Source: Mobula birostris
Lineage: Eukaryota
Assembly: GCF_030028105.1 (NCBI RefSeq)
Contig: NC_092378.1
Location: forward strand, 125,601,731-125,665,730
Direction of reading: 5' to 3'
Length of the DNA: 64,000 bases
The notes beneath the pieces are model-generated. The model was not told the origin of the DNA and did no database searches. It was given only the letters and a program-made list of their open reading frames with translations. Every line of letters starts with the position of its first letter. Position 1 is the stretch's first letter. Position numbers and translations under genes: made by a program. Below, in pieces: positions 4,801 to 61,860 of this stretch.

Positions 4801-5865
4801 TATACAATTATATTGAAAAGTGGCCCTTTTTGATTTTTGCCCTGGATTTGCCGGCCTGCCACTTTTACTTTTCACCTTACTACTTTTTGCTTCTACCCTC
4901 ACTTTACGCCCCTCTGTCTCTCTACACTTGTTCTCATCCCCCTGTTGTGAACTAACCTCCTCTCTCCTAGTCTCTTTAATTTGATTCCCACTCCCCAACC
5001 ATTCTAGTTTAAAGTCACCTCAGTAGCCCTCACAAATCTCCCCGCCAGGATATTGGTCCCCCTAGGATTCAAGTGTAACCCGTCCGTTTTGTACAGGTCA
5101 CACCTGCGCCAAAAGAGGTCCCAATGATCCAAAAACTTGAATCCCTGCCCCCGATCCAATCCCTCAGCCACGCATTTATCCTCCACCTCATTGCATTCCT
5201 ACTCTCACCATCGTGTGGCACAGGCAGTAATCCCGAGATTACTACCTTTGCGGTCCTTTTTCTCAACGCCCTTCCTAGCTCCCTATATTCTCCTTTCAGG
5301 ACCTCTTCCCTTTTCCTACCTATGTCATTGGTACCTATATGTACCACAACCTCTGGCCCCTCACCCTCCCACTTCAGAATATCTTGGATGCGATCAGAAA
5401 TATCCCAGACCCTGGCACCAGGGAGGCAAACTGTCACCTGGGTCTCTGGACTGCATCCACAGAATTGCCTATCTGACCCCCTTACTATTGAATCCCCTAT
5501 TACAACTGCCCTCCTCTTCCTTTCCCTACCTTTCTGAGCTACAGGGCCGGACTCTGTGCCGGAGGCACAGCCACTGTCGCTTCCCCCAGATAAGCTGTCC
5601 CCCCAACAGTACTCAAACAGGAGTACCTATTGTCAAGGGGCACAGCCACTGGGGTACTCTCTATTACCTGACTCTTCCCCTTACCCCTCCTAACCGTGAC
5701 CCACTTGTCTGCCTCCCGTGTGACCACCTGCCTGTAACTCCTCTCTATCAACTCCTCACTCTCCCTGACCAGACGAAGGTCATCGAGCTGCAGCTCCAGT
5801 TCCCTAATGCGGTCCCTGAGGAGCTGCATCTCGGTGCACCTGGCGCAGATGTGGCCGTCCCCACC
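1881..5865 (-). mobile_element. Near-full-length, frameshifted CR1 LINE (ORF1 zinc finger/leucine zipper + SGNH esterase; ORF2 APE endonuclease + RT)
   Basis: ORF fragments: HICARCTEMQLLRDRIRELELQL; VCLPGARV..HIGTND..DGLHLN (esterase); LCVNARSI..GITETWL (APE); YLDFQKAF, GVPQGSVLGP, FVDNTKL (RT); 3' end (TTTCTATG)n microsatellite. Confidence 0.95.
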
Positions 5866-8391: not shown

Positions 8392-9239
8392 GTAAAGGTT
8401 TTGAACCTAATTCAAACATTAAATATTTGTCTGCTGTAATAATATCAATCCATAGCAGATTAATTTAGTACCCTCTTGTTCGTTGAACAATTAAAATGGA
8501 AGTGAAATTCACAGTGAATAGTAGAGTTTTTGCTTTTCTTTTTATTTTCAGACATCAAAAGCATCAACTAATGTATGGATCTGGTTTGATGTGTGCTAGC
8601 AATCTCCTGGTTCTTCAGCAGTGGTTCTACACATCATGCCTATAGTGCCTTTGATAATGTAGATTTTCAGCTTTCACTTCCTGACCAGCCTAAGATGAGA
8701 AGATATCTTATCAGTTGTTTCTACATTACCTTCCTTGGATGATCATCTGATATTTAGAGATTTCCAGTCTAGTGCTCTCTCTTTGTTCAGATAAAGTCTT
8801 GGCTACCATGGTGATGGTATTAGAAACAGTTCTGTTACTTCCAATTACCACACTCCTCATTGGGACCTTTTAGTATCTCTTATTTAACACTTCTTTTGCA
8901 TAGAATATGCCTGACTTGCTTAATAGATGGAGATTCTCTGTGATATACTTCAAGCTTCATAATATAACGTGCAAGCTAACTCTTGAGCCAATATCCCTGA
9001 TCCAACAACTTGATTCAAAACAAAACATGGACTTAAGACTGGCCAGTTCACTTTGGTCCTCTTACACTACAACCTCCTTCTAGGTTACATCAGGAACACC
9101 TCATCGTTTACAGCGCCTTGTTATAATTGGAGTATCAGCTGAAGTCTCTCTGCCAAAAGAACCAAGATTGTAGGATTAGTAGGAAAGTATGGTGCCGTAG
9201 GTTGGTTAGTGTTCTTCCTTCACTATCTCAACATCTTTG

Positions 9240-9335
9240 ATAATGGAAAGAACTCAGCAGGTCAAGCAGCATTCATGGAGGCAAAATATTTCGGGTTGTG
9301 ATCTTGCATCAGGTCCTGCTGAGTTCTTCCAGCTT
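9240..9335. repeat. Short decayed fold-back remnant of the Penelope-like tail
   Basis: GGAAAGAACTCAGCAGG...CCTGCTGAGTTCTTCC inverted repeat enclosing a degenerate minus-strand hammerhead (CTGATGC...GAAA). Confidence 0.55.
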
Positions 9336-9446
9336 TATATTTTTGTTTTATATTCTAGCATCTACAGTTCCTTTTGTCCTCTTTTGAAAGCTTTTTATGT
9401 AAACAATGTCTCTAATCCCCAAAATTCCAACAGTTTCATGATTATA

Positions 9447-11085
9447 ACAGTCACAATTACAACAGAGAAAGTACTCAGGAAGCTGAATAGTCTAAAGGTA
9501 GATAAATCTCCTGGACCAGATGGAATGCACCCGTGTGTTCTGAAGGAAGTAGCTGTGGAGATGGTGGAGGCATTAGCAATGATCTTTCAAAAGTCGATAG
9601 ATTCTGGCATGGTTCCGGAGGACTGGAGGATCGCAAATGTCACTCCGCTATTTAAGAAGGGGGCAAGGAAGCAGAAAGGAAATTATAGACCTGTTAGCTT
9701 GACATCGGTGTTTGGGAAGTTGTTGGAGTCGATTGTCAAGAATGAGGTTACAGAGTACCTGGAGGCATATGACAAGATAGGCAGAACTCAGCATGGATTC
9801 CTTGAAGGAAAATCCTGCCTGATAAACCTATTACAATCTTTTGAGGAAGCTACAAGTAGGCTAGACAGGGGAGATGCAGTGGATGTTGTATATTTGGATT
9901 TTCAGAAGGCCTTTGACAAGGTGCCACACATGAGGCTACTTAACAAGATAAGAGCCCATGGAATTACGGGAAAGTTACATACGTGGATAGAGCGTTGGCT
10001 GATTGGCAGGAAACAGAGAGTGGGAATAAAGGGATCCTATTCTGGTTGGCTGCCGGTTACCAGTGGTGTTCCACAGGGGTCCGTGTTGGGACTGCTTCTT
10101 TTTACATTGTACATCAACGATTTGGATTATGGAATAGATGGCTTTGTGGCTAAGTTTGCTGATGATACGAAGATAGGTGGAGGGGCCGGTAGTGCTGAGG
10201 AAACAGAGAGTCTGCAGAGAGACTTGGATAGATTGGAAGAATGGGCAAAGACGTGGCAAATGAAATACAATGTTGGAAAGTGTATGGTTATGCACTTTGG
10301 CAGAAGAAATAAATGGGCAGACTATTATTTAAATGGGGAGAGAATTCAAAGTTCTGAGATGCAACAGGACTTGGTATTCCTCGTACAGGATACCCTTAAG
10401 GTTAACCTCCAGGTTGAATCAGTGGTGAAGAAGGCGAATGCAGTGTTGGCATTCATTTCTAGAGGAATAGAGTATAGGAGCAGGGATGTGATGTTGAGGC
10501 TCTATAAGGCGCTGGTGAGACCTCACTTGGAGTACTGTCGGCAGTTTTGGTCTCCTTATTTAAGAAAGGATGTGCTGACGTTGGAGAGGGTACAGAAAGG
10601 ATTCACCAGAATGATTCCGGGAATGAGAGGGTTAACATATGAGAAACGTTTGTCCACTCTTGGACTGTATTCCTTGGAGTTTAGAAGAATGAGGGGAGAC
10701 CTCATAGAAACATTTTGAATGTTGAAAGTCATGGACAGAGTGGATGTGGCAAAGTTGTTTTCCATGATAGGGGAGTCTAGTAAGAGAGGGTATGACTTAA
10801 GGATTGAAGGGCACCCATTCAGAACAGAAATGCGAAGAAATTTTTTTAGCCAGAGGGTGGTGAATCTATGGTATTTGTTGCCACGGGCGGCAGAGGAGGC
10901 CAAGTCATTGGGCGTATTTAAGGCAGAGATTGATAGGTATCTGAGTAGCCAGGGCATCAAAGGTTATGGTGAGAAGGCAGGGGAGTGGGACTATATGGGA
11001 GATTGGATCAGCTCATGATAAAATGGCGCAGCAGACTTGATGGGCCGAATGGCCGACTTCTGCTCCTTTGTCTTATGGTCTTATA
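9447..11085 (+). mobile_element. 5'-truncated CR1 LINE with a long open RT frame
   Basis: ORF 9237-10718 contains KSPGPDG, NYRPVSLTS, YLDFQKAFDKV, GVPQGSVLG, FADDTK; 3' end TCTTATGGTCTTAT. Confidence 0.95.
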
Positions 11086-15039: not shown

Positions 15040-16960
15040 GAAATAAACACTGAAAACCTGAACTAAAAACAGGAGACACTCAACAGATCAGACAATATCT
15101 GTGGACAGGGAAACAGTTCACATTTCTGCTCTGGGAACCTTGATCAGAACTGAGGAGAGAAACAAGTAATTTTAGCTGCCAGAGAAAGAGGTAAGGAAGA
15201 ATAGGTGGGACAAAGGGAATTTTTCTCATCGATTGACAGAGTGGTAGCTAAAGGGCTGTTAGATTCGGATTCAGCTATTTGCATGTGTAACATATTGTTA
15301 ATGGCAAGCATATGGGAAAAAAGGAAGGAGAAATAACAAGATGATTGAGTGAAGTAATGGCTGGCAAAAATAACCATTATTCATATGGAGAGAGAAAAAT
15401 AGTGAATAATTTATAATTTTGAATCCAGTCAATCCTGTGAATTGAGCACAGAACGACCGCTTAGTCTACATTTGGCTTCTCAGACCTGGAGGTGGCCATA
15501 TTGTGAACACAGAATGCAGGACACTAAGATCAAAAATTTGCAAGAGAACTGCTGCTTGACCTGGAAAGGTTGTTTGGGTTCCTGAATGTCAGGAAGGAGG
15601 AGATGAAAGGGCAAGTATTGCATCTTCTTTGATGGCATGATAAAGGGGAGTGATTATATGGGGATAGAAAAGTGACCAGGGACTTGTGAAGGGAGCAACC
15701 CTTTAAAATGATGAACGGAGGCAGGGAGTAGTATTTGGATCTGATGGTGGAGATGGTGAAAATTATTCATTGAATGCAGAGACTCGTGGGGTGAAAGATA
15801 AAGAGCAGCAAACCCTTTTCTGTAACTTCTGCCTTCTCCAATGGGATTCTATCACCAATCATATCTTTCTCTCCCCCCACATTCTGCTTTCTGCAGGAAT
15901 CACTCCCTACATGACTCATTTGTCCATTCGTCCATTCCCACTGTTCTCCCTCCTGACACTTATCCTTGCAAGCGGAACAAGTGCTACACCTGCCCCTACA
16001 CCTCTTCCCTCACTACCACTCTCGGCCCCAAACAGTTGTTCCAGGTGAGGCGACATTTCACCTGTGAGTCTGTTGGTGTCATTTACTGTATCTGGTGCTC
16101 CCAGTGTGGCCTCCTGTGTAATGGTGAGACCTAACGTAGATTGGGAGACCACTTCATTGAGCACCTTAGCCCTGTCCGCCGCAAAAAATGGGATTTCCTA
16201 GTGTCCACCTATTTTGGTTCTACTTCCCATTCCTATTCCAACATGTCAGTCCATGGCCTCATCTGCTGCCACAATGAGGCCACACTCAGGTTGGAGGAGC
16301 AACACCTTGTATTCCGTCTGGATAGCTTCCAACTAGGTGGCAAGAGCATCAATTTCTTGAACTTCTGGCAATTGCCTCCTGCTCCTTCACCATTCCCCAT
16401 TCTTGTTTCCCTCTCACACCTTCTCTGCTCACCTACCCAGCACCTGCCTCTGGTGCTCTTCCCCTTTCCCTTTCTTCCATGGTCTTCAGATTCCTCATTC
16501 TCCAGCCTGTTATCAATTTCACCAATCAACTTCCCAGCTTTTTACTTCACCCCTTCCCCGTCCCAGTTTCACCTATCACCTACCACCTTGTACTTCTCCC
16601 TCCCCCTCATCCCCTCCCCCCCCCACTTCCTATGTTCTGGCTTCTTATCCTGATGAAGGGCCTCGGCCCAAAACAATGACTGTTTACTCTTTCCCATAGA
16701 TGCTGCCTGGCCTGCTGAGTTCTTCCGGCAGAATGTGTGTGTTGGTTTGAATTTCCAGCATCTGCAGTTTTTGTCATGTTAGCAAACCCGTTATTCCAGG
16801 AAGAGAAGTGGTGAAAGCAGATATTCAGGATGAGGTGTGACCAAGGTTCTGTCCATGGTGGCTGAAGGGAGGTCGTGATTCATGAAGGAGGATATATTTG
16901 GACAATAAGCCAAGAATGAGAACTCTAAATGAATCAGTGCTAAAGGAAGTCACTGCATTA
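15040..16960 (-). mobile_element. Old decayed Penelope-like element on the minus strand, interrupted at 15816-16780
   Basis: Reverse complement resembles the tail (15040-15150) and GIY-YIG region (15420-15800, e.g. ACCTGGAAAGGTTGTTTGGG) of the 51514-52850 copy. Confidence 0.5.
15816..16780 (+). mobile_element. Penelope-like element 3' part (Cys-rich linker, GIY-YIG, degenerate hammerhead, tail)
   Basis: TYPCKRNKCYTCPY, VIYCIWCSQCGLLCNGET, LRLEEQHLVFRL; CTGATGA-AGGGCCTCGGCCC-AAAA at 16650; 9-bp TSD AGCAAACCC (15807-15815 / 16781-16789). Confidence 0.9.
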
Positions 16961-22082: not shown

Positions 22083-23263
22083 TGTTATAATTTATAACTC
22101 CAAAACATAAAATTAATTGAAAGAAAGCAAAGCTGGGAGATGCTGGTGCTTAGTTCTGTTTTTACTTGTAACAAGGCACGCACTTATGATGTGGTAGTGT
22201 GATGATGGATTTCATTCACATACTTTTACATATAACCTGTAATTAATTAATTATTTAAATAACAAAGAATTTTCAATCAATATCACTCAAATATTATTGA
22301 AATATGAAATGCACAGCACTCCTCCCTGATCAGCTATAAACTCCAACTCAATATCTGCTTGGTGGGTGAGACTTATGGCGGTGAAACAATCTCAGGCTCT
22401 GGGGCCTCTGTGGTCCTTTCAGGGGTTGACTTGTGGACTGCAGGAAGTGGCTCTGACAGCTAAGGATATCTTTCTTCTCCAACAATTGACTCTGTACTCC
22501 TTAACTGATCAACGTGTCATCTCCAGATGACATCAGACGCAATCTACACTGTGTTGGAGAGTGGCCCAGTTCTGTCCTTAATCTCTCTAAGTACCCATTT
22601 TTGATTATCTCTGTGGTCCCTCGCCGGCACTGCTTGTCCAAGAGTGAAACACTGGGCCCTCCTCATTTGAGGAGCCCTCAGTTTGTCTCAGCTGTTTGTG
22701 CTGCATACTCCCTCTGAGAGGATCCAAGCATGAGCATGAGGGACGACCAAGGAACAGCATAGTTGGTGGGTGGTTGGTTGCTGCATTGCGATGCAAGGAG
22801 GACATCGGCACGATTCTGATTCAGTGTGTGTGTGGTGTGTTATGCTGACATTGCTTACAGCTTATTTTTTAGAATCTGGACAAACCTTTCCACCAAGTCT
22901 TTTATAGCTAGGTGGTACGGTGCAGATGTAATATGTCTTATTCCATTCTTTTTCAGGAATGACTGAAATTGTTACGCAGCAAACTGTGGTCTCTTGTCAC
23001 TGACTAAGTGTTTTAGAAGACCAGTCCTTGAGAAGAGGCTTCTCAACACATCAGCAGTGTGTGGCAGTAGTGGAGGCTTTTGAGAACACCATTAGCCACT
23101 TTGCATCCACTACTACCAAGAAATTTGTGCCCATGAATGGACTGGCGAGATCCACATGAATCCTCTGCCAGGACAATGCAGGCCGTACCCAGGGATGGAG
23201 AGGCGCTGCTCTTGGCATCTTCTGGACGTGTTGGCATCCTGAAAAGTACATGGCAAGCTGCTC

Positions 23264-23838
23264 ATTCCCATTCCCATTCTGACATGTCTATCCACGGCCT
23301 CCTCTACTGTAAAGATGAAGCCACACTCAGGTTGGAGGAACAACACCTTATATTCCGTCTGGGTAGCCTCCAACCTGATGGCATGAACATTAACTTCTCT
23401 AACTTCCGCTAGGCCCCACCTCCCCCTCGTACCCCATCTGTTACTTATTTTTATGCACACATTCTTTCTCTCACTCTCCTTTTTCTCCCTCTGTCTCTCT
23501 GAATATACCTCTTGCCCAACCTCTGGGTCCCCCCCCCCCTTGTCTTTCTTCCCGGACCTCCTGTCCCATGATCCTCTCGTATCCCCTTTTGCCAATCACC
23601 TGTCCAGCTCTTGGCTCCATCCCTCCCCCTCCTGTCTTCTCCTATCATTTTGGATCTCCCCCTCCCCCTCCAACTTTCAAATCCCTTACTCACTCTTCCT
23701 TCAGTTAGTCCTGACGAAGGGTCTCGGCCTGAAACGTCGACTGCACCTCTTCCTAGAGATGCTGCCTGGCCTGCTGCGTTCACCAGCAACTTTGATGTGT
23801 GTTGCTTGAATTTCCAGCATCTGCAGAATTCCTGTTAT
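23264..23838 (+). mobile_element. Young 5'-truncated Penelope-like element inserted in the Gypsy integrase
   Basis: LRLEEQHLIFRLGSLQPDGMN; pyrimidine-rich linker; hammerhead; perfect 13-bp TSD TGGCAAGCTGCTC (23251-23263 / 23839-23851). Confidence 0.93.
23707..23742 (+). ncRNA. Minimal type I hammerhead ribozyme (intact core)
   Basis: AGTC-CTGACGA-AGGGTCTCGGCCT-GAAAC-GTC/GACT: stem I AGUC:GACU, CUGANGA and GAAA core boxes, stem II hairpin, palindromic ACGU stem III, GUC cleavage triplet. Confidence 0.85.
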
Positions 23839-25969
23839 TGGCAAGCTGCTCGATCTGCTGATCTATCCCAGGCCACCAGGCAATGTTTCGAGCCAACGCT
23901 TTCATTTTAACCACGTCTAGATGATCTGTAAATAGTTGCCCCAACACTTCAGCTCTGAGATTGAATGGTACATTTCTCAATCCCCGCATAAGTCAACCCC
24001 CATCAAGGGCAGGTCCATCCCAGCGCTGGTAAAAATGGGGAACTGGGATTTCTGCTGCACATTCCTGCCATTTTGGGTGGCCATGTAGATGTGAGACAAT
24101 GTGGGATCTTTTCTGGTTTCCGTTTGGATTATGTCTGCCATAATAGGGAGACTTTCTATTTGTGTTAGGGAGAATACGTCAAAAGGAGTGTCATCTTTTG
24201 TAAATTTTTCAGTTATTTCCTTTTCCAAGGGTAAACAAGGCAATCCATCAGTACTCCCATGAATAGCTGTCCTCTTGAATTCAATCCTATGATTGAACCC
24301 TCCAAGAAGCAGAGGCCATCTCTGCATTCGTGCCGGTGTTGTTAGTGGAACACCCCTCAGTGGACTGAAAATGGACACTAGTGATTGATGATCAGTAATG
24401 AGGGTAAACTCTTTCCCATTCAAGTACTGGTTGAAACATTTTACATCCCAAACCAGACTCGAGTCCTCTCTGTCAATCTGTGCACAATATTTTTCTGCAG
24501 CGATAAGGGAACATGATGCAAAGGTTATGGGGCGTTCATTTCCATCACTCATAACTTGTGACATCACTGCGCCCACGCGAAAAGGCGAGGCATCACTGGA
24601 TGATGTGAATCATAATGTGTGACTATAGTGTCTGACATCACCATTTCCTTTGCCTTTTGGAAAGCCACCTCACACCGCTTTGTCTATTGCCATTTCTTTG
24701 TGCTCTGTAGTAATGAGTTCAAGGGGTGAAGCACAGTAGCTACTTTTGGCAGGAACCAGTTAGAGTAATTAACAAACCCTAAAAAGGGTTACAACTCTTT
24801 TGGCCTTGGGGCATCCACCACCGCTTGAATTTTCTCAGCACATTTGTGTAATTCTAGTGTGCCAGTGATGTGACTACATTAAGTGATGCTTGGTTTAGAG
24901 TTCACACTTGTCATGTCGTGCTCTGAGCCCATAATTTTCTTGAGATTTTGGAGATGTTTCTGTCATCGCCACTGGTAATGATGATGTCATCCAGGTAACA
25001 GTGAGTGCCCGTGAAGCCTTGCAGCACCTGGTCACGAGCTTTTCGCCAGAGTGCAGGTGTAGATGCTACTCCAAAAATAAGCCTATTTTTACGATAAAGC
25101 CCGACATGTGTGTTTATGGTGAGAAACACTTTGGACTCTTCTTCATCTCCATCTGTAGGTAGGCCTCAGCTAAGTCCACATGCTGAAGTGTTTCTGTCCA
25201 GAAAAATTTGCAAAGATATCCTCTATCTTGGGCAGAGGGTATTGATCTACTTTCAGTACTGGATTGATGGTGACCTTAAAATCACCACAGATTTTGATAG
25301 ACTCATTCTTTTTGGCTGCTGGGACCATTGGCATTGCCCTTGAGCTCCACTTAACTTTGGAAAGAATTCCTTCTGCTTCCATGTGATCTAGCTACTTTAT
25401 CACAGATGGTATATAGGAACTGGATGAACTTCTGAAATTTGGGTGTGGCATTTTATTTTAACACTAATTTATCCTTGATATGTTCGAGTTTTCCACTGAC
25501 ATCCTTGAACAGTGCTGTGGCATCATTCAGTGCCTTTCTTGATTCAGTTTCAGTTGACTCTGTTGCAGGCAATGTGGGACGCAAATGGCGGCTGGATCTC
25601 CAATCAAGCTGTAGTTGTCTCAGTCACTCAAGTCCCCACAATACTGACCCTCCTGTTTTTAACCACATACAAGCCCAGTGTGGCTTGTTGGTTGTTGTAT
25701 TTCACTATTAGGAATGTCATTCACACAGGATTTATCTTTTCTTCGGTATAAGTTCTTAGTTGGATATCTGCAGGCTTCAGTTTAGTATCTTTGAAATGCC
25801 TCTCAAACTCATTTTGTGGAATCACTGAAACAGCTGAACCAGTGTCCAATTCCATTTTAATTAATTTGCTGTTCACTTCTGGTGTAAGCCATATTGCTAG
25901 TCTATTGTTAGTTTTCACATTGTAAATCTGAAGGCTACACAGTCCTGTCACTCTCATCATTAGCAGATT

Positions 25970-37141: not shown

Positions 37142-37820
37142 GCAAACAAGTGAAAATCTGCAGATGTTGGAAATCCAAGCAACTCACACAAAATGCTGGA
37201 GGGACTCAGAAGGCTGGGCAGCAGCTATGGAAAAAAGTATATTCAAGGTTTTGGGCCAGGACCCTTCGACAGGATTGGAAAAAAAAGATGAGGAGTGCAT
37301 TTAAAAGGTGGGGGGGGAAGGTGAGTGAAACCCGGAGGGGAGGGATAAATTAAAGTGCTGGGAAGTTGATTCGTGAAAGAGATACAGGGCTGGATAAGGG
37401 GGACTCTGATAGCAGAGGACAGAAGGCATTGGAAGAAAGAAAAGGGGGGAGGAGCACCAGGGGGAAGCGATGGGCAGGTAAGAAGGTAAGGTGAGAGAGA
37501 TAAAAGGCGATAGGGTATGGTGAAGGGTGGACATTACTGGAAGTTCAAGAAGTCAATTTTCATGCTATCAGATTGGTGGCTACTTCAGTCCTGTATCTCT
37601 TTCAACAATCAACTTCCCAGCTCTTTATTTCCTCCCTCCCCCTCCTGGTTTCACCTATCACCTTGTGTTTCTCTCTCCGTCCCCCACCTTTTAAATCTGC
37701 TTCTCATCTTTTTGTTCTCCAGTTCTGCCAAAGGTTCTCGGCCTAAAACGTCGACTGTACTTTTTACCCATAGATGCTGCCTGGCCTGCTGAGTTCTGCT
37801 AGCATTTTGTGTGTGTTGCT
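37142..37820. mobile_element. Inverted (head-to-head) pair of Penelope-like 3' ends within one TSD
   Basis: Minus copy ~37142-37580 and plus copy ~37580-37820; flanking duplication TGAAATACTT(C)TTAATT at 37126-37141 and 37821-37837. Confidence 0.8.
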
Positions 37821-39044
37821 TGAAATACTTCTTAATTAAAGCAAAACAATTAAAAAAATAAACTTGGCTCCTATATTCAGGTCCAAACTTAACCACATAA
37901 ATCAGTAAGTTTTAGATCCAATATTTAGTCTAACATTTCTTGAAGGCTCAGAGGCAATTCTCCTGTGTATTGGTGGTGGGTTCATTAAATTCCAGATTTG
38001 TATGTACATTTTGGTTCAGCACATAGTTTTATTTGAATGATTAAATACACCATTTACAATCAGAAGATTTGGAGAAGGTTGTATCAGTGTACTTTGTGGA
38101 GGAATACAAAAGAATCTGGTATCATGTTTAGTTATGAATGTTCACCTTCAAGAAGTTCCTGCCATATTTCCTCCATTACAATGGTGAATGGTTTTGAGAG
38201 AATCCTTACCACAAATTCCAAGCCAAAGTGTTGTACTCTCCGTTTTAACTGTTCTTAGAATTGAACCCCTCTTTGTCTGTAATACTATACTTTTCATGCC
38301 TTTGAGCAAATTTTGTGGCTAACATCATAATTAACATTGAAAATGATCTTATTAACTTCAGCAATAAGTTAAAATATATTTAGAGTAATCACAGGGCAGT
38401 TATCCTTGCAGTATAAGTTTAAGATATAGCCAACAAAGTCAAATCCCTGTGGGGACGTTTAGCAGATTTTCAGTATTATCTGAGTCATAAGTCATGGCCA
38501 ACATCACATCATATGTTCCAAGGTCTATTAGTGTTTGTCTGTAAGTATGGCAGGTGGCAAAAAGGATAAAGGAAACCACAGGATATCTCACTTTGCATGA
38601 AATATTGTATGATGAGTAGTAAACCACTTTGTTCCTAGTAACCTAAATGGTTATCAGGCATGAATTTGCTTTGCTACTGTTTTTTTATGACCCTGTAATA
38701 TGGCATAATGGAGTCTTGTTGAATAACAGAAAATAAAAATCAATCAATAGTCTTGCTCTTTTGTACTTGTTGTACCATCCCAACCCGATAAAGTAAATCC
38801 AATCACACTTTGAAATTTGACCAGAACAGGCTTAACTTGAGTTTGAATCATTACCTAAAACAGTGTATGTATTAGAAGCTATTCATTGCATTTGGAAGTT
38901 TGAAAGAAAGAGGGAAATAAATTATTCTAAAAAATTATATTGAAAATATATTGTATTATTCACAAAAGGCACACAACCTTTTGTTAGACTTTTAAAATAC
39001 ATTTTACAAAGACAAAAAACAGGAAATGTTCTCATTGTTCAAAA

Positions 39045-39385: not shown

Positions 39386-40449
39386 GGGATAAAAATATTT
39401 TATTGATGACTTTTTTCAGGTGCCACTTGAGCAAGAATAGAGCAGATCATTCTGTGCTTGGGAATATGCAATGGAGAGTTAATTTAATGGAGAAGGAAGT
39501 ACATTTTCAATAAAAAGCACGAGAGACTGATCTATTCTCTCATTTCCCCTGCTTTAATCTGCACTAACCACTGCTGATTTGCTGAGTATTTTCAGCATCT
39601 TCTGTTTTTTTTTAATTTTCTGCATGTACATTGCTTAATTCTCCTGCTGCTATTTAAATTAGTTAGGCAAGCAAGCATTTTATTGCCCTCATTAATCATA
39701 TATACCTTGATATGATCACCTTGCAAGTGGCGCTTTTCTAGACTGATCGTTCTAAGCTTTGCCATTGTGTCTTCATAACTCTGAGATCAGCCTTATCTCT
39801 TATCTTCACAATTGAAAGTGCCTTAGTTACAGTATTTTGGTGATATTAGTGACTCAGGACATGCCCAATTTCTACAAAGGAAGAATGGTGGTTAGTATTA
39901 ATAGGACATTCAAATAACACTCATCTATATGCTGAACATGATGCATGAAAGTGCTGACATTCTGTTCACTCTTTCCACTGTCAATCTATAGTTCTAACCT
40001 TATTCTTGGATTTTGTGTTAAGTGTTCTTGGCAGATCACCTTAAAAATGGAATGGCAACACATTTTGACTGGCTGCAGCATTTAAGTGATTCTGTCAGTG
40101 GTTTTGAGACCAACAACTTTGTATTACCAACTAAGCATTACATGTTTCCCTCCTGCTCAGCCAAAAAATATTGTGTTTTGTAGCCTGTGACCAGGCTGCT
40201 ATCGATAATGATGTAAAATCATAAAATGCTGGAAGCACTCTGCAGGTCAGGCAACAACTGTGGAAAGAGAAACAGAGTTCACTTCTCTGGTCATCACCAC
40301 TGCAGGAAACAGTTTAGGTGTAAGTCTCAGCTCCCCCACATTGTCAACAACTTAAAACCAGCCTTTTTTTTTGGTCTCTGGTGACAAAGGGTCTACAATC
40401 TGAAATGTTAACTCCATTTCTCATTCCACAGATGCTGCCTGACTTGCTG

Positions 40450-41090
40450 TTGCTCTGTCCGCCAGAGAAAGCAGGATCTCCCAGTGGCCACACATTTTAA
40501 TTCCACATCCCATTCCCATTCTGATATGTCTATCCGCGGCCTCCTTTACTGTAAAGATGAAGCCACACTCAGGTTGGAGGAACAACACCTTATATTCCGT
40601 CTGGGTAGCCTCCAACCTGATGGCATGGACACCGACTTCTCTAACTTCCGCTAATGCCCCACCTCCCCCTCGTACCCCATCCGTTATTTATTTATATACA
40701 CACATTCTTTCTCTCTCTCTCTCTTTTTTCTCCCTTTGTCCCTCTGACTATACCCCTTGCCCATCCTCTGGGTTTCCCTCCCCCTCCCCCTTTTCTTTCT
40801 CCCTGGTCCTCCTGGCTCATGATCCTCTCATATCCCTTTTGCCAATCACCCGTCCAGCTCTTGGCTCCATCCCTCCCCCTCCTGCCTTCTCCTATCATTT
40901 TGGATCTCCCCCTCCCCCTCCCACTTTCAAATCCCTTACTCACTCTTCTTTCAGTTAGTCCTGACAAAAGGTCTCGGCCCGAAACTTCGACTGTACCTCT
41001 TCCTAGAGATGCTGCCTGTCCTGCTGCGTTCACCAGCAACTTTTATGTGTGTTGCTTGAAATTCCAGCATCTGCAGATTTCCTCGTGTTG
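40450..41090 (+). mobile_element. Penelope-like element 3' part, adjacent to older tail remnants (40220-40450, 41090-41160)
   Basis: Near-identical to 52220-52850; hammerhead core mutated (CTGACAA; GAAACTTC). Confidence 0.9.
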
Positions 41091-41524
41091 ACATCGACTA
41101 TCTATTCATTTCCATAGATACTGCCTGATCTACTGAGTTCCTCCAGCATCTTATGTGTCTTACTTAGCAAATATGGCTCTTGGGTATGGATATCTTTCCA
41201 CTGCTTATACTGAGGGAATTCTGCCCTGGCAAGCAATTCCCTCAGTATAAGTAGAAAGCTGCTTCTGACTGCTGCCCAGTTTCCCCCAAGGATGTCTATT
41301 TAAGATCTTATTTCAAAGAGGAGTAAGGGAGTTGTCACTGGCCAGGAATGATCACCATCTCAAAATTACTACCGAAAGGATTAGATATGTAATCATAAAA
41401 CATGGAGACGGGTCCTTTTAGTCCACCACGTCCACACCAGCCATACACTTAATCCTATATTAATCCCCTTATTTTCTCCTGACATTCCCATCAACGCCTT
41501 CCAGATTGTACCACTTCGTCGGCG

Positions 41525-43346: not shown

Positions 43347-43479
43347 GTTAGTTCACTGATGCTTTAGTGTTTGTTCATTAGTGTGAATGAACTATGTATA
43401 CTTTGCTTCTTGGCCCCAGAATAATGCTGTTTTGTTTGGCTGTATTCATGTATGATTGAATGATAATTAAACTTGAATT

Positions 43480-44592
43480 TGATTGATGGATAGAAGATTG
43501 GCTGACTGGCAGAAAGCAAAGAACAGAAATAAAAGGGGCCTTTTCTGGTTGGCTGCTGGTGACTAGTATTGTTCTGCAGGGGTTAGTTTTGCGACTGCTT
43601 CGGTTTACATTATGTGTCAATGTCTTGGATGATGGAATTAATGGCTGTGTGGCCAAGTTTGTAGGTGATACAAAAATAGGTGGAAAGGTAGGTAACGCTG
43701 AGGAAGCAGGGAGTATATAGAAGGACCTAGACAGATTAGGAAAACGGGCAAGGAAGAGGCAGATGGAATACAGTGTCGGGAGGTGTGTTGTGCACTTTGA
43801 TAGTAGAAATAAAGGTGTAGGCTACTTTCTTAATGGGGAGAAAAATAAAAATTCAGAGGTGGAAGGGGACTTGGGAGTCTTTGTGCAGAATTCCTTAAAG
43901 GTTGACTTGTAGGTTGAGTCAGTGATAAGGAAGGCGAATGTAATGTTAGCATTCATTTTGAGAGGATGAGAATGACATTGCATTAGCAAGAATGTAATGC
44001 TAAGACTTTAGAAAGCATTGGTCATACCTCATTTGGAGTATTGTGAGTAGTTTTAGGCCCCTTATCTAAGAAAAAATATGCTGGCATTGGAGAGGGTTCA
44101 GAGGAGGTTCATGAGAATGATTTTGGGAATGAAAGGATCAACATACTGTATGAGGAGCATTTTATGGCTCTGGGCCTTAATCACTGGAGTTCAGAAGAAT
44201 GGGGAGGGGGGATCTCATTGAAACCTATTGAATATTGAAAGGCGTAGGTAGAATGGACGTGAAGAGGATGTTTCTATAGTGGGGGAGTCTATTACCAGAG
44301 GATACAGCCTCAGAATAGAGGGACGTCCACCTAGAATAGAGATGAGGAGGAATTTCTTTAACCAGAGTGTGGTGAACTTGTGGAATTCAATGCTAAGGAC
44401 GGCTGTGGAGTGTAAGTCATTAAGTATATTTTAAGTGGAGGTTGATAGGTTCCTCATTAGTCAGGGCATCAAAAGTTACGGGGGGAAGGCAGGAGAATGA
44501 GTTTGAGAGGATAATAAATCAGCTATTGTGGAATGGCTGAGAAGACTTGATGGGCCAAATAGCCTAATTCTGCTCCTATGTCGTATGGTCTA
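43480..44592 (+). mobile_element. 5'-truncated decayed CR1
   Basis: Colinear with 9985-11085. Confidence 0.9.
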
Positions 44593-45114
44593 AATCAATC
44601 ACTAATGCTTTAGTGTTTGTCTGTTCTGAAGCCACCGTATATATTTCTGCTATCAATCTCTAATATTCTGTACAAATAAGTTGTTTTTAAACAGTTGAAG
44701 GTTTGACTTAATTTTTTTTTAAAATGACTCATTGATGCTTCTGGTGTCAAGTCTTCTGTCATTTCCAGACTGGAGTTTATTAAATATTTGAGACAAACAG
44801 CAAATGTTGTGTAAACAAGAAGTAATTGTTAAAGTATTCTGTGCTGACACTCCAGAGAAATATCAAATATCTCCCATAGGTAAATTTGCACCTGAAGATT
44901 TAGTTGCTTCCTCTTTAAGTAAACTGATGCTCTGATTCAGACAGGTTACCTGAATCAGAATCTGAATCAGTATTTGTTGTTTTGTGGCAGCAGTACTGTG
45001 CAAAGGCATCCAATTTCACCTCATTTAGGATTTTGATAATTATTCTGATTTTGGTAACTTGCCTGATTCAGGGAATAATTTTATTTAATTAGAAAGCAAA
45101 TCAATCTTCAGTTG

Positions 45115-45290
45115 ACACATATCAAAGTTGCTGGTGAACGCAGCAGGCCAGGCAGCATCTCTAGGAAGAGGCCGGAAACGTCGACTGTACCTCTTCCTAG
45201 AGATGCTGCCTGGCCTGCTGCGTTCACCAGCAACTTTGATGTGTGTCGCTTGAATTTCCAGCATCTGCAGAATTCCTCGTGTTTGCGTTT
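45115..45290. mobile_element. Miniature fold-back Penelope-tail insertion (57-bp hairpin arms)
   Basis: 45115-45171 is the reverse complement of 45190-45246 (1 mismatch); perfect 14-bp TSD TCAATCTTCAGTTG (45101-45114 / 45291-45304). Confidence 0.92.
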
Positions 45291-45803
45291 TCAATCTTCA
45301 GTTGTATGTTTTTATCCATTCTGTTTACCAGAAAAAGATTTTAAAATATTTTCAAATCTCAAATTTTTAATGGAATGTAATATTCTACTGTTTTTCATGA
45401 AGTAGGTAGAATATTGTAGGTCTAAAGTGTTGCAAAGATTGCAATGTTTTATGAAAACCTTGACAGGTAACAATTCATTGAAGGAAAAGGATCTTCTGTG
45501 TTTGATCTGACATTTAAGTAAAAATGCACATTTACAATGCAAGAGAACTGGGTAAATATAAAAAGCCAAATACTGTAGTCATTGAAAACCTGAAACTATT
45601 TCTGGTATTATCCTGGCTCTAAGATAGATTACACGTTGACAATTTGCTTAACTGTTGCTGCTTGTCCTATTATTCTACCTATATGACAACAGAACTCACC
45701 AATGCTAAAGAAAATAGATTGAAATTTGAAAAAATTTTTTAATTTCAACATTAATAATTATATCAGCACATGAACAACTTCATCAAACATGTTCTGGTAA
45801 CAG

Positions 45804-46193: not shown

Positions 46194-47039
46194 CTATACA
46201 ACCTGATAAGGTTCAGATTCCAGTGACTGTCTATTTATTTCAGTTGAGATTTCTCTAGTAACTTGGAGTTCTTGTCCATTTGATTCTGAAGTCCAATTGG
46301 CTAAAAGATCACTAAAATCAGGTGTGCTAGTATGAAGGATGCAGCTAGGCACAAGAGAAACAGGCTCTTTCCAAAAAGATGAAGGAAGCTTTCGTCTGTG
46401 CATTGGGATTACATTGGCATACTTTTGATCCAGTTTTTGCATCCTGTTGTCTCTCCTGTTCAAGGTTGATGGTTTCATGTATTTGTACAAACCATATTCA
46501 AAAAGTTCTGCCAGGGGACCTAATTTTTTAATACTTTCTCTGTCACAGATTAATTCCAGTGCCTGAGTGTCTATTTCTTTGGGTTGCAGTAAAGATACAT
46601 TTGGTTCCTCCTCTTCTTGATCTCCATCTTGTGCAATTTTTATGAGGTCTGCATAGTACAGCTCTCTACCTGATTTACCGGAATAAAACCTGTCTTCGTA
46701 GATATTGCAAGAATCAGGATCATCATCTTTGCTTTTCCTACCAAAGTACTTCTGAATATCATTGTTGATTAACTCAGTAAACCTTAGTAGCTGCAACGTG
46801 GTTTTGGTGCTCTTTGCTACAGGTGTAAATGACTGGTGCGTTGCACTGCAGTTTTCACCTCCAGGGCATTTCCTAATGCTTCCTGAATTCTGTTCTTCAC
46901 TGTTATCTTCTAGTTCTTCCTCTTCCTCAGATGTTTCCTGGAAATCCGTGTCCTGGTGAACATCGAGATTTAGAAAAGGAAGCTGAAAGGCTTGCGCTAG
47001 TCTAAAATCAGACATGTTCTTTATCACACCTGCTGCCAT
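46194..47039 (-). CDS. PERCC1: Proline- and glutamate-rich protein with coiled coil 1 (281 aa, single coding exon)
   Basis: Intact ORF in good Kozak context (gcaATGG). MAAGVI start, acidic tract, QLLRFTELINNDIQKYFG, SGRELYYADL, LGPLAELFEYGL, PMHRRKLPSSFWKEP, TPDFSDLLANW. Convergent with CCDC154 as in mammals. Confidence 0.93.
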   Translation of the reverse strand: MAAGVIKNMSDFRLAQAFQLPFLNLDVHQDTDFQETSEEEEELEDNSEEQNSGSIRKCPGGENCSATHQSFTPVAKSTKTTLQLLRFTELINNDIQKYFGRKSKDDDPDSCNIYEDRFYSGKSGRELYYADLIKIAQDGDQEEEEPNVSLLQPKEIDTQALELICDRESIKKLGPLAELFEYGLYKYMKPSTLNRRDNRMQKLDQKYANVIPMHRRKLPSSFWKEPVSLVPSCILHTSTPDFSDLLANWTSESNGQELQVTREISTEINRQSLESEPYQVV

Positions 47040-47656
47040 TGCGTGCTTATCTTGGTTCTGTTTCTGGCTTGTATCTGCCCTGTGTACAATTTAAAAAGAT
47101 ACAGTGTATTGCCATGATTTTGCAATGCTATCAATCAGATCTCAAGATATAACCCCCCCCCCCCCCCCACACACACACAGAAACCACTGCAGGTAACAGT
47201 TGTTTCTACATAGAAAAATCGATTATCAATAAATTTGAATCATTAATCTGGGAGTTGGTGTAATAAAACAGTGACTTCTATGTTCCATTAAAACAGTATC
47301 TATGTTTAATATGAATCAAATAACTTCAAAAGTTATCAGATGTAGACCTCTTAACTAATTCTAATACAGACTTCCATTAGATTTTAACGTGCAAGCCTGT
47401 TACTTGAAAAGTCTGTCTTACATTTGAGTAATTCTCAGGTGTTCTTAAATTGACTTTATGAAGTTCACATTTCCTTAACAACAACACAGTGTGTTTTATA
47501 GTACAACATCTAAAGAATTAAGAAATTTCACCATATTTATCACTATGTCACCGCTAATCCTTAAATCTCATGCAACAGGGGTTGCTGAGAGCTTTACGTT
47601 TGTTTAATGGTTCAGAGGATCTTTTACAAAATTGGTAACAAGGTAATAGCTCTTAC

Positions 47657-49844: not shown

Positions 49845-50865
49845 GTGACTAGTGGTGTTCCTTAGGGGTTAGTATTGGCACCACTAATTTTAACATTGTT
49901 TGCCAATGATTTAGACAATGGAATTGATGGCTTTGTGGAAAAGCTTGTGGATGATACAAAGATAAATGGAGGGGTAGGTAGTGCTGAGGAAGGAATGTGA
50001 TTGCAACAGGACTTATATTGGAAGAATGGGCAAAAAAAGTGGCAGATGGAATACAGTGCTGGGAAATGTGTGATAATGCATTTTGGTAAAAGGTACAATA
50101 GTGTGGACTATTATCTAAATGGGGGAGAAAGTTCAAACATCAGAGGGACAGAGGGACTTAGGAGTCCTCGTGCAAGACTCCCAGAAGGTTAATTTACAGG
50201 TTGAGTCTGTTGGCAAATGCAATATTGGCATTTATTTCAAAGGGAATAGAATATAAAAGCAAGGAGATAATGCTGAGCCTTTGTAAGACACTAGTCAGGC
50301 CACACATGGGGTATTGTCAAAGAGTTTTGGGCCCCATATCTCAGAAAGGATGTTTTGTCATTGAAGAGAATCCAGAGGAGGTTCATGAGGATGATTCTAG
50401 GAATGAAGGGGTTAACACATGAGTAGCATCTGGCAGCTTTGGGCCTGTACTCACTGGAATTTAGAAGAATGCAGGGGATCTCATTGAAACCTACTGAATG
50501 TTGAAAGGACTAGATAGGGTAGATGTGAAGAGCATCTTTCCTGTGGTGGGGGTATCCAGAACAAGAGGGCACAGTCTCAAAATTGAGGGCAAATCCTTTA
50601 GAACGGAGGTAAGGAAGAATTTTTTTAGCCAGAGAGTAGTAGATCTGTGGAATGCTCTGCCACAGACTGTGGTGGAGGTCCAGTCCATGAGTATATTTTA
50701 GGCGGAATTTGATAGTTTTCTGATCGGTAAAGGCATCAAAGGATATGGCGAGAAGGCAGGTGTATGGGGTTGAGTGGGGTCGAGGATCAGCCATGATGGA
50801 ATGGTGCAGCAGACTCGATGGGCTGAATGGCCTAATTCTGCTTCGATATCTTATGGTCTTATGGT
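49845..50865 (+). mobile_element. 5'-truncated CR1
   Basis: KWQMEYSAGKCVIMHFG; SRTRGHSLKIEG..RKNFFSQRVV; TCTTATGGTCTTATGG terminus. Confidence 0.92.
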
Positions 50866-51513
50866 AATAACGTTATTTTTATCTCTGATTCTGTAGATGG
50901 ACACACCCACTGAGCTACACTTTATTATTTCAAAATACCCTACGAATTGGATAACAGGCAAACACTGTATGAAAAAGATTTGTGAAGGTAGTGTGGAAAA
51001 TTATTTCAAAATTCAAGTTATAAAACAATCCTTTATGTTCAAGTTGTGGACTACATGTTATACTATCTTGATGTAATAGACTTTCTTATCTCAGATTATA
51101 ATCAATATAGTTTGAGTCTGGATTGAAGACATCTGCATTCCGGTTTTTGAGTTTACAAATTTGGCCTCAGAGTGCTAATTTCATTCTTTCAATTTGTTTA
51201 TTTTGAATAACTATTTATTACTATTTAAGAATACTCAAACAATTTTCATTACTATTTAAGTATACTTTAAAAGAAGATTACATTCCATACCAACCATTCC
51301 GTTCTTTCAGTTTCACAAACAAATGAAAAAGATTCAATAAAGAAGTTCTCCTCAGATTACCTTCTCAATTTCTGTCACAAAGGTCAAATTACTTCATTGG
51401 GATAAGAAGGATTCATTTTGGAGACCAGGCATAAAAATGGAGCTAAAGGAATGTCTGACCTTTGTAACTTTTGGAGGAATAGAGATAAAAAAACAAAGGT
51501 GTTATGATGCACT

Positions 51514-52850
51514 GTTATTATCCACTGAAGTCTACTATAAGCCTACTGACCCTCACAGCTATCTGGACTATTCCTCTTCTCACCCTGCCTCTTGCAAAAA
51601 CGCCATCCACTTCTTGCAATTCCTCCGTCTTCGCCGCATCTGCTCTCAGGATGAGGCTTTTCATTCTAGGACGAGGGAGATGTCCTCCTTTTTTAAAGAA
51701 AGGGGCTTCCCTTCCTCCACTATCAACTCTGCTCTTAAACACATCTCCCCCATTTCACGTACATGTGCTCTCAGTCCATCCTCCCGCCACCCCACTAGGA
51801 ATAGGGTTCCCCTGGTTCTCACCTACCACCCCACCAGCCTCCGGGTCCAACATATTATTCTCTGTAACTTCCGCCACCTCCAACGGGATCCCACCACTAA
51901 GCACGTCTTTCCCTCCCCACCCCCCCGCTTTCCGCAGGGATCGCTCCCTACGCGACTCCCTTGTCCATTCGTCCCCCCCATCCCTCCCCACTGATCTCCC
52001 TCCTGGCACTTATCCTTGTAAGCGGAACACGTGCTACACATGCCCTTACACTTCCTCCCTTACCACCATTCAGGGCCCCAAACAGTCCTTCCAGGTGAGG
52101 CGACACTTCACCTGTGAGTCGGCTGGGGTGATATACTGCGTCTGGTGCTCCTGATGTGGCCTTTTATATATTGGCGAGACCCAACGCAGACTGGGAGACC
52201 GCTTTGCCGAACACCTACGCTCTGTCCGCCAGAAAAAGCAGGATCTCCCAGTGGCCACACATTTTAATTCCACATCACATTCCCATTCTGACATGTCTAT
52301 CCACGGCCTCCTCTACTGTAAAGATGAAGCCACACTCAAGTTGGCGGAACAACACCTTATATTCCGTCTGGGTAGCCTCCAACCTGATGGCATGAACATC
52401 GACTTCTCTAACTTCCGCTAATGCCCCACCTCCCCCTCGTACCCCAACTGTTATTTATTTTTATACACACATTCTTTCTCTCACTCTCCTTTTTCTCCCT
52501 CTGTTCCTCTGAATATACCCCTTGCCCATCCTCTGGGTTCCCCCCCACCCCCGTTTTTCTTCCTGGACCTCCTGTCCCATGATCCTCTCGTATCCCTTTT
52601 GCCAATCACCTGTCCAGCTCTTGGCTCCATCCCTCCCCCTCCTGTCTTCTCCTATCATTTTGGATCTCCCCCTCCCCCTCCAACTTTCAAATCTCTTACT
52701 AACTCCTCCTTCAGTTAGTCCTGACGAAGGGTCTCGGCCTGAAACGTCGACTGTACCTCTTCCTAGAGATGCTGCCTGGCCTACTGCGTTCACCAGCAAC
52801 TTTGATGTGTGTTGCTTGAATTTCCAGCATCTGCAGAATTCCTGTTGTTT
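51514..52850 (+). mobile_element. Longest Penelope-like (Neptune-type) copy: RT C-terminus, Cys-rich linker, GIY-YIG endonuclease, hammerhead, tail
   Basis: STEVYYKPTDPHSYLDYSSSHP..QFLRLRRICS; RVPLVLTYHP; GTYPCKRNTCYTCPY; VIYCVWCS*CGLLYIGET; VATHFN. Contains a frameshift and a stop. 15-bp TSD GTGTTATGATGCACT (51499-51513 / 52851-52865). Confidence 0.95.
52717..52752 (+). ncRNA. Minimal type I hammerhead ribozyme (intact core)
   Basis: Identical to 23707-23742; predicted cleavage after C52748. Confidence 0.85.
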
Positions 52851-52851
52851 G

Positions 52852-53099
52852 TGTTATGATGCACTATCAATTACTCCAAAAGACTGGAAGTAGAGTAAAT
52901 ATTGAAAGGCTTTTATGAACAGTAAATGGACCAACGTCCATGCTGAGTATCGGTCCTGGACTGAGGGAGGAGCAGCGACACAATCACCTTTATTCAGGGA
53001 TCTGTGGGAGGAGCCACAGGAGCAGTCAGCAGAGGGGCGTGTCCAGGCATATCCAGACGGGTAACCAAGTTACAACCTATAGATATATGGTTTACCACA
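52852..53099. mobile_element. Possible solo LTR hit by the Penelope insertion
   Basis: TG...CA ends, GC-rich interior, minus-strand AATAAA near 52990; no convincing TSD. Confidence 0.35.
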
Positions 53100-60214: not shown

Positions 60215-61860
60215 AAAGAGCTTTAGCTTAACATCCCAACTCCTGTACTCAATACTTTGAAAGCCAATGTACCAATAGCTCTCTTTACAACACTATCTAC
60301 TTGTGCTGCCACATTCAAGGAATTATGGATCTTTTTTTCCAGATCCCTCTGTTCCACTGCATTCTTCAGTGCCCTATTGTTTACCAAGTAAGTCCTACCT
60401 TGGTTTGTCCTCCCATAAGTGCACACTTAACATTTGTCTGGCATTAAATTCCATCTGCTATTTTTCAGCCCATGTTTCCAGCTGTTTCAGATCTCACTGC
60501 AAAGCTTTGATAGTCTTCCTCACTGCCTAGTATACCCCCAGTCTAGTGTCCTGTGAAAGTTTGCTGAATCAGTTAACCACATTATCATCCAAATCATTGA
60601 TAGAGATGACAAATAATCGTAGACCTATCACCAAGCTTTGCAGTAAACCACTAGTCACAGGCCTCCAGTCAGTGAAGCAACCATCTACTACCACTCTCTA
60701 GCTTCTCCCAGAAAGCCAATGTTGAATGCCAAGGGAATTCCATGTGGGAAGTTGTTAAAGACTTTGCTAAAGTCCATATAGACAACATCTGTGACCTTTC
60801 CTTCATCAACTTTCCGGGTAACTTAGTTAAAAGACCATAAGACCATAAGTTTTAGGAGCAGAAGTAGGCCATTCGGCCCAGCAAGTCTGCTCTGTCATTC
60901 AATCATGGGCTGATCCACTTCATTCAGTGATCCCCACTCCCCTGCTTTCACCTCATACCCTTTGATGCCCTGGCTAATCAAGAACCTATCTATCTCTGCC
61001 CTGAATACACCCAAAGATTTGGCCTCCACAGCCGCTCGTGGCAACAAATTCCACAGATTTACCACCCTCTGACCAAAGTAATTTCTCCGCATCTCAGTTC
61101 TAAAAGGACGTCCTTCAATCCTGAAGTCTCGCCCTCTTGTCCTAGAATCCCCTACCATGGGAAATAACTTTGCCATATCTAATCTGTTCAGGCCTTTTAA
61201 CATTTGTAATGTTTCTAAGAGATCCTCCCTCATTCTCCTGAACTCCATGGAATACAGCCCAAGAGCTGCCAGACATTCCTCATACAGTAACCCTCTCATT
61301 CCTGGAATCATTCTCGTGAATCTTCTCTGAACCCTAAAAAAGTCTATAAGATCTGTTAGACATGACCTGCCATGCATAAAGCCATGTTGACTATCCCTAA
61401 CAAATCCCTGATTTGTCTATCCAAATACTTACATACGCGATCCCTTTAAATAACTCCCAATAGCTTACCCACCATTGATATCGAACGCACTGGCCTATAA
61501 TTTCCATCTTATTCTTAGAGCCTTTCCTAAACAACGGAACAATTTTTAATATCCTCCAATCCTCCAGCACTTCACCCATGGCTAAGGATATTTTAAATAC
61601 TTCTGCTAGGGCCCCTGGAATTCCTGCACTGGACTCCTACAAGGTCCAAAGGAGCATATTGTCAGGCCCCGTAGATACATCCACCCTAATCTGCCTCAAC
61701 ACAGCAACCACATGCTCCTCTGTAATCCATATATGATCTATGACTTTACACCTTTTATGCTTCATTTCTATAAGATCTTTGTCCTCAGAAAATACAGATG
61801 CAAAATCCATTTAAGATGTCTCCGATTTCCTGTGGCTCCATGTATAGATGGTCACACTGA
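60215..61860 (-). mobile_element. Old CR1 with a younger CR1 3' end (~60832-61335) nested inside
   Basis: Outer RT remnants (EQRDL..HNSLNVAAQV; EDWRILKIVPLFRKG); inner copy similar to the reverse complement of 10585-11085. Confidence 0.88.

Follow-up and report, generated by a model that had tools for sequence, protein, structure and literature searches.

A devil ray Penelope-like element with a minimal hammerhead motif in its terminal repeat

A 64,000-nt stretch of contig NC_092378.1 of Mobula birostris (hereafter, the window) contains a 36-nt motif that a preliminary description had read as a minimal hammerhead ribozyme at the 3′ end of a Neptune-type Penelope-like element (PLE). The locus raises the question of whether this motif belongs to a known class of ribozyme and, if so, which RNA it could cut. 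The motif adds a further example to a known class, the minimal hammerheads of PLE terminal repeats (pLTRs) described in PMC4209133. Sequence comparison further suggests that it is probably a conserved member of this class, with a putative weak, dimer-dependent cleavage in the transcript of its parent element. The relevant features are collected in Table 1.

Table 1. Features of the hammerhead motif, its host element and related copies in the window.
Feature	Position	Strand	Remarks
Minimal type I hammerhead motif	52717..52752	+	fits the consensus in PMC4209133 Fig S3
Helix I	52717-52720/52749-52752	+	AGUC/GACU
Hammerhead core, 5′ part	52721-52727	+	C3 52721, G5 52723, N7 (C) 52725, G8 52726, A9 52727
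Unpaired extra A between 9 and 10.1	52728	+	favoured register
Helix II, 4 bp	52729-52732/52737-52740	+	from folding
GAAA box	52741-52744	+	G12 to A15.1
Palindromic ACGU, helix III without loop	52744-52747	+	C15.2/G16.2 52745-52746, U16.1 52747
Predicted cleavage site	after C52748	+	C17 52748
5′-truncated Neptune-type PLE bearing the motif	51514..52850	+	
Left TSD, 15 bp	51499..51513	+	perfect
Right TSD, 15 bp	52851..52865	+	perfect
RT C-terminal (thumb) remnant	51515..51922	+	aligns with ray and shark proteins holding upstream RT motifs
CX4CX2C cysteine linker between RT and endonuclease	52017..52043	+	Neptune/Nematis feature
GIY-YIG endonuclease	52125..52421	+	PF01541
Terminal repeat 3′ of predicted cut	52749..52850	+	includes optional tail of ~38 nt, 52813-52850
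Second, shorter copy	23264..23838	+	intact motif 23707-23742
TSDs of second copy, 13 bp	23251-23263 and 23839-23851	+	perfect
Third copy, same subfamily	40452..41090	+	broken motif 40957-40992
Fold-back stump	45115..45290	.	inverted 57-nt arm and direct copy starting inside the hammerhead
TSDs of fold-back stump, 14 bp	45101-45114 and 45291-45304		
Older subfamily copy, 69% identity	15816..16780	+	motif near 16646, G12 to A
TSDs of the 15816 copy, 9 bp	15807-15815 and 16781-16789		
Head-to-head inverted pair of older copies	37143..37826	.	both motifs broken

The type I core is complete, as had been claimed: the CUGANGA and GAAA boxes, U16.1 and H17 of the minimal hammerhead are all present. 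Stem III is indeed the loop-less palindrome ACGU, and the cut position given earlier coincides with the site predicted from the core alignment. Helix I stands as drawn, and one further U-G pair is possible, giving an open-ended helix of 4–5 bp. The three-pair helix II of the preliminary description, however, has to be replaced by a register with a bulged A and four pairs, which is more stable (−6.0 versus −4.6 kcal/mol) and reaches pair probabilities of 0.86–0.95 in the bare 36-mer, compared to 0.02 for the three-pair register. An additional nucleotide that separates position 9 from 10.1 is a listed trait of PLE minimal hammerheads (PMC4209133), which share with the ray motif the type I topology, the short helix I, the palindromic A15.1-C-G-U16.1 without loop III, and a site in the terminal repeat behind the endonuclease. 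The first pair of helix II at both 52717 and 23707 is a G10.1-U11.1 wobble, compared to a G10.1-C11.1 consensus that exceeds 80% and is not invariant; G-U is also seen here in several published rows (PMC4209133). C at 52740, which would give the canonical G-C pair, makes up about a third of the depth (32%) of the contig run X1, and the window copies at 40957 and 16646 also have C11.1.

A motif this small could be a chance hammerhead resemblance inside a repeat, and some of the statistics are unremarkable. The bare core pattern alone occurs at chance level (13 matches versus 11.25 expected), neither the motif nor its context stands out in folding z-score (−0.06 to −1.54, one of them −0.37), and the Rfam search proposed earlier returned seven matches in the window at E≤1, none of them to a hammerhead family. 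Features of a canonical type I hammerhead, namely a 6-bp helix I with a loop 1–loop 2 contact and an Rfam match, are absent. The descriptor search that had also been proposed gave a different picture. When the core is combined with helices I and II of at least 3 bp each and a paired 15.2-16.2, the two strands of the window yield only 52717 and 23707, and a single match was obtained in one of 300 dinucleotide shuffles, with none giving two. Since, in addition, motifs of the same type occupy the same place, on the sense strand only, in distant relatives (see below), we regard a chance resemblance as refuted, its probability being negligible.

The second exact 36-mer announced for 23707–23742 was recovered, and allowing up to three mismatches added nothing beyond the two sites in the window (0 of 100 shuffles). 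The identity of the two 36-mers is no sign of selection: 182 of 536 windows between the two copies are free of substitutions, and because the copies are 96% identical overall (23 substitutions in 570 columns), identical 36-mers are unremarkable (P 0.227).

The host of the motif is an EN+ PLE in all the parts that remain. The hammerhead motif forms one contiguous unit with the RT remnant, the cysteine linker and the GIY-YIG domain, and follows the endonuclease stop at a distance of 296 nt. The thumb remnant breaks off where the frame shifts within a run of C near 51910–51927, and the endonuclease frame has a premature TGA (52152–52154) ahead of its terminal stop (52419–52421); with the premature stop read as X, the PF01541 match has an E value of 5.4e-05 (23.9 bits versus a cut-off of 22.6). 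The RT core is missing here by truncation and is retained in the aligned homologues P0128 and P0125, through which the family shows the ORF with a PLE RT and C-terminal GIY-YIG that defines EN+ elements. Compared with 373 candidates, the protein of the element matches 14 longer proteins (E≤0.001). Of these, 11 are named proteins of rays or sharks, and the top match, from Mobula hypostoma, is 91% identical.

According to PMC8557442, a CX2-5CxxC linker is diagnostic of Neptune and Nematis and missing in Penelope/Poseidon; the CX4CX2C linker therefore excludes the latter for the ray element. Together with the kinship with coral-type elements described below, it supports the Neptune-type host of the preliminary description. 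On this sequence comparison, the Neptune placement is supported by the linker and by kinship with Acropora-type elements, and Nematis is a possible alternative. Published Neptune EN+ PLEs (PMC8557442, PMC3846280) resemble the ray element in their RT, linker and C-terminal GIY-YIG with CCHH residues, as well as in 5′ truncation, TSDs, inverted 5′ arms and an optional 30–40-nt tail, whereas the clade of the ray element is judged from linker and coral-type kinship and the element is known from truncated copies.

The perfect TSDs reported for the inserts at 51514 and 23264 were both confirmed. The inserts had also been called young, which holds in a relative sense: the copies are 96% identical to each other and the copy carrying the 52717 motif has a frameshift and a premature stop. 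Likewise, the motif does lie in the 3′ region of the element, but ~100 nt internal to the end rather than at it. The boundary of the optional tail is indicated by the inverted arm at 45115, which ends at the equivalent of 52812, and by loose contig ends behind 52814–52816 and 52851.

The window holds further copies, all of them 5′-truncated. A profile built from six copies, which match by construction, gave 18 matches at E≤10, 15 of these at E≤0.004. The complete core is kept in two of the nine copies that cover the motif and is broken in seven; at 40957–40992 the damage consists of G8 to A, G10.1 to A and G16.2 to U. These nine copies show no significant covariation (47 and 88 of 500 shuffles scored as high). 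No TSD was found around the 40452–41090 copy. Its neighbourhood (40220–41165) is a cluster of four superfamily pieces, with an older terminus on either side of the copy and a third, in inverted orientation, upstream; the arrangement looks as though such elements had inserted into each other. Next to the 15816–16780 copy, at 15447–15844 on the minus strand, is a fragment of a more diverged Penelope-like endonuclease.

Two of the insertions, at 45115–45290 and 37143–37826, combine an inverted 5′ arm with a 30–40-nt tail at one end only, a published PLE insertion pattern in which the tail is optional (PMC8557442, PMC3846280). The inverted arm of the first is 38 nt short, and the + arm of the second is without its last ~31 nt. 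The two arms at 45115–45246 differ at one of 57 positions, and no A-to-G editing scar was found between them. The near-perfect hairpin at 45101–45304 also yields a sub-threshold Rfam match to mir-627, which is spurious. In an old fold-back stump at 9247–9368, the inverted arm joins exactly at the start of the hammerhead core, and contigs repeatedly show opposite-strand joints of 52717–52718 to 52760–52806; inversions may often break at the 5′ edge of the motif.

Since some insertions are little more than a terminus, the motif-bearing unit could instead be a non-LTR retrozyme or a SINE-like element rather than an autonomous PLE. A short terminal-only stump does exist (45115–45290), and hammerhead retrozymes are reported in the single chondrichthyan sampled by the preprint bioRxiv 10.64898/2026.07.22.740005. 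Animal non-LTR retrozymes also share with the ray motif a type I hammerhead, a dimer-dependent model, a circular RNA proposal and a link to pLTRs (PMC7229834; bioRxiv 10.64898/2026.07.22.740005). They are, however, described there as ORF-free tandem repeats of ~170–400 nt, whereas the ray element is a dispersed solo copy with coding sequence. The motif is joined to RT/endonuclease coding sequence in the copies at 51514, 15816, 23264 and 40452, there is no tandem array among the 13 element matches in the window, and the hammerhead is of the minimal form, not the canonical one with a 6-bp helix I. A retrozyme identity is thus largely refuted for the 51514 copy, and we give this reading hardly any credence.

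The placement in a PLE pLTR is reinforced by distant relatives of the protein. A metagenome survey found that 470 of 602 candidate stretches encode a relative, and the best 80 of these 470 were analysed. The endonuclease end is seen in 45 of the 80, and 38 have at least 300 nt behind it. Eleven of these 38 loci carry a strict sense motif behind the endonuclease, compared to none in 50 shuffles of each, and none of the same 38 carries one in antisense. Seven of the eleven motifs are identical to the Neptune hammerhead of Acropora digitifera, whose element is classed as Neptune in PMC4209133, and one more differs at position 17. The coral motif agrees with that of the ray in the core, the extra A, the GGG start of helix II, GAAA-CG-U-C and a helix II of 4 bp with a 4-nt loop. 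It differs in the letters of helix I and loop II; G10.1 pairs with U rather than C at 52717 and 23707, and the motif lies ~300 nt behind the endonuclease in the ray, compared to ~97 nt in coral-type loci.

In a hand-picked set of nine motifs (two from the ray and seven loci, with five rows taken from the pairing-demanding descriptor), C3, U4, G5, A6, G8 and A13–A15.1 are invariant and G12 is kept in eight of nine, while the helix letters and N7 vary; C-G at 15.2-16.2 occurs in seven of the nine. Six of nine pairs are changed on both sides, including all four of helix I, and none of 500 shuffles scored as high; this covariation score is inflated by the choice of rows, some of which came from a descriptor that requires pairing. 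One of these motifs, that of L045, is found 919 nt downstream of its endonuclease and may be part of a different element. All three cysteines of the linker are found in 54 of the 74 related loci covering those columns. A quick tree of 64 rows, built with no named references and leaving out loci that cover fewer than 280 of 366 residues, places the four elasmobranch proteins in a group of 46 rows (SH-aLRT 95) with 14 elements carrying the Acropora-type motif. Degenerate patterns of the ray motif had no exact match in metagenome or viral contigs, and none of 155 candidate stretches in viral contigs encodes a relative of the protein. A separate branch (L040, L062, L065, L070, L071, L079 and L044) has a hammerhead-like core 330–410 nt downstream of the endonuclease, in which A9 is not followed by an extra nucleotide and the letters after GAAA form no palindrome. 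Judged by these letters, the hammerheads of this branch may possess an extended helix III and act as monomers.

The family is represented well beyond the window. Part of the element stretch was found in 20 of 24 listed public runs from eight studies, whereas the raw-read runs X21 and X22 gave no matching reads. One DNA run has 170,434 contigs on 601 nt and 40,206 on a 63-nt stretch, which is not a copy number and yet bears out the abundance asserted by the preliminary description. A rough depth-based bound, likewise not a true copy number, places the related copies between tens of thousands and about a million; it follows from a summed contig depth of 15 million, single loci at ~8–16 and an overcount of up to 31-fold. 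A consensus without the conserved boxes, which would have refuted the ribozyme reading, was not seen: among the 40 best-supported of 92 variants, one falls inside the 36-mer (52740) and none in the catalytic core. The same 40 include five near-private changes of the 51514 copy, with the alternative at 92–99%. On the 63-nt stretch one variant is listed, 52735 C>T at 9% of depth, variants near contig ends being excluded.

Loose contig ends pile up at the outer edges of helix I. The largest piles directly precede 52717 (657 and 629 contigs in two DNA runs) and directly follow 52754 (447 and 465), which we take to mean that divergent subfamilies have the hammerhead in common and diverge immediately beyond it. 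The piles before 52717–52719 may include 5′ truncation points; a pile of 5′ ends at 52749 is not among the loose ends listed. The ratio of depth at 52715–52735 to that at 52757–52777 is 0.51 and 0.59 in two putative RNA runs versus 0.88 and 0.85 in two DNA runs. Since the runs are labelled RNA by a guess, and contigs show neither RNA level, strand nor ends, we give this difference no weight.

How, then, might the motif act? As a monomer it would be inactive, with a helix III that has no loop and a core sequestered in the predicted fold. This fold is a rod in which G5-A6-C7-G8 of the ray motif pairs with C15.2-G16.2-U16.1-C17, and the same rod-like fold is predicted for the coral-type and L001 motifs. 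A second motif could be supplied by a tandem or two-pLTR transcript of the parent element. Two motifs in such a more-than-unit transcript would pair via their ACGU palindromes and cut slowly after C17, and a double cut would free a unit-length RNA. ViennaRNA energies run the other way (−9.5 kcal/mol for the swapped double hammerhead versus −28.3 for a rod-like duplex), with helix probabilities of at most 0.03 in 200–300 nt of natural context, in a model that is poor at hammerhead junctions. Minimal hammerheads of metazoans are described as lacking activity in monomeric form and having little as dimers (PMC4209133, PMC6765202). Among published relatives, a minimal motif of Schistosoma is inactive as a monomer and weak as a dimer or trimer (PMC4209133), one of nine Xenopus dimers was cleaved (bioRxiv 10.64898/2026.07.22.740005), and Naiad PLEs are described as multiplying without canonical hammerheads (PMC8557442).

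Any such cut has to be reconciled with the inserts. Ray inserts keep an intact motif and 60–100 nt beyond the predicted cut, and coral-type copies extend 60–110 nt past it. As the inserts are continuous past the site, their template was uncut or religated there, and as they run 60–110 nt past it, the 3′ terminus of an insert is not determined by the 3′ motif. Reverse transcription would thus start downstream of the cut site, on RNA that is continuous across it. The proposed role in PMC4209133 and PMC6765202 is precursor cutting, perhaps with ligation to a circle for more-than-unit reverse transcription. By analogy with this published model, the cut unit may be religated into a circle, a choice that we make tentatively and at less than even odds; an uncut, linear, more-than-unit template is a possibility that we rank slightly below it.

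The same observations could be taken to mean that the motif hardly ever cuts, and serves instead as a folded handle (for RT or endonuclease, or for defining the transcript end) or simply hitch-hikes. Published relatives cleave weakly or not at all, inserts are uninterrupted across the cut site and the rod-like fold recurs in the ray, coral-type and L001 motifs; PMC4209133, moreover, leaves roles other than cleavage open, and hammerheads may parasitise PLEs according to PMC8557442. The residues that are kept across the aligned motifs are nevertheless the catalytic ones, whereas helix letters and N7 vary. We therefore consider this reading unlikely, though it is the most serious rival to weak, dimer-dependent cleavage in the parent's transcript.

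The two intact motifs in 64 kb and the shared rod-like predicted fold suggest a bolder extension of dimer-dependent cleavage. Devil rays would have at least tens of thousands of intact minimal hammerheads, beyond the published counts of 4,000 in coelacanth and 9,000 in Xenopus, and C7 would be a lock, conserved from coral to ray Neptune elements. By pairing core and cleavage site, it would hold monomers inactive until a second, tandem motif frees them to cut and to circularise the template. All six published rows with C7 have CG at 15.2-16.2, compared to 29 of 56 overall (hand count of the table in PMC4209133); the association has a P of 0.015, with rows that are not independent. We regard this modelled extension as improbable.

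Solo copies, finally, could act on host RNA by cutting ray transcripts that read through them. Two copies do have a complete core, and the family is represented in contigs of the two putative RNA runs, although that label is a guess and the contigs are without strand or ends. The core is broken in seven of nine window copies, the identity of the two intact motifs is expected by chance, the solo copies are 29 kb apart with no close cis partner, and PERCC1, the sole host gene identified in the window, is on the opposite strand. An action on host RNA is accordingly very improbable, and the solo copies at 51514 and 23264 are most likely passengers without a function of their own.

Minimal hammerheads have been described in Xena, Poseidon and Neptune elements of fish, and in coelacanth, Xenopus and reptiles (PMC4209133). 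Fig S3 of that source, with its 56 rows, includes no shark or ray, and a literature search covering few subscription journals found no paper on a hammerhead in a ray PLE. In preprint 10.64898/2026.07.22.740005, Neptune and Poseidon are listed as widespread groups, while Hydra and Naiad are confined to a coral. The ray motif thus extends the class of minimal hammerheads in Penelope-like pLTRs to rays, which are missing from the published motif table; this is a small addition. A recently active and very abundant ray family with a nearly coral-like motif should nonetheless be handy for tests of dimer cleavage and circular RNA.

The elasmobranch origin assigned to the DNA agrees with PERCC1, an intact single-exon CDS at 46194–47090 on the minus strand, which is 99% identical to that of Mobula hypostoma and 95% identical to that of Hemitrygon. 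The element with the 52717 motif lies 4.4 kb upstream of it, on the opposite strand. Pieces of the element are also fused into annotated ray gene models (proteins P0124, P0125, P0129 and P0133), under the names mucin-2, divergent protein kinase domain 1C, receptor-transporting protein 3-like and chitinase domain-containing protein 1; these are probably annotation artefacts or exonised copies.

Other retroelements are present in the window. Decayed LINE-type elements lie at 2166–5626 (−), 9210–10718 (+), 43378–44600, 49845–50872 and 60830–61416, and the frame at 9210–10715 contains an RVT_1 domain (E 2.4e-30). The copy at 2166–5626 looks nearly full length, and its upstream frame may resemble an esterase-type ORF1. 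An RNase H-like domain (PF17917, E 3.2e-22) at 23977–24609 on the minus strand marks the remnant of an LTR retrotransposon.
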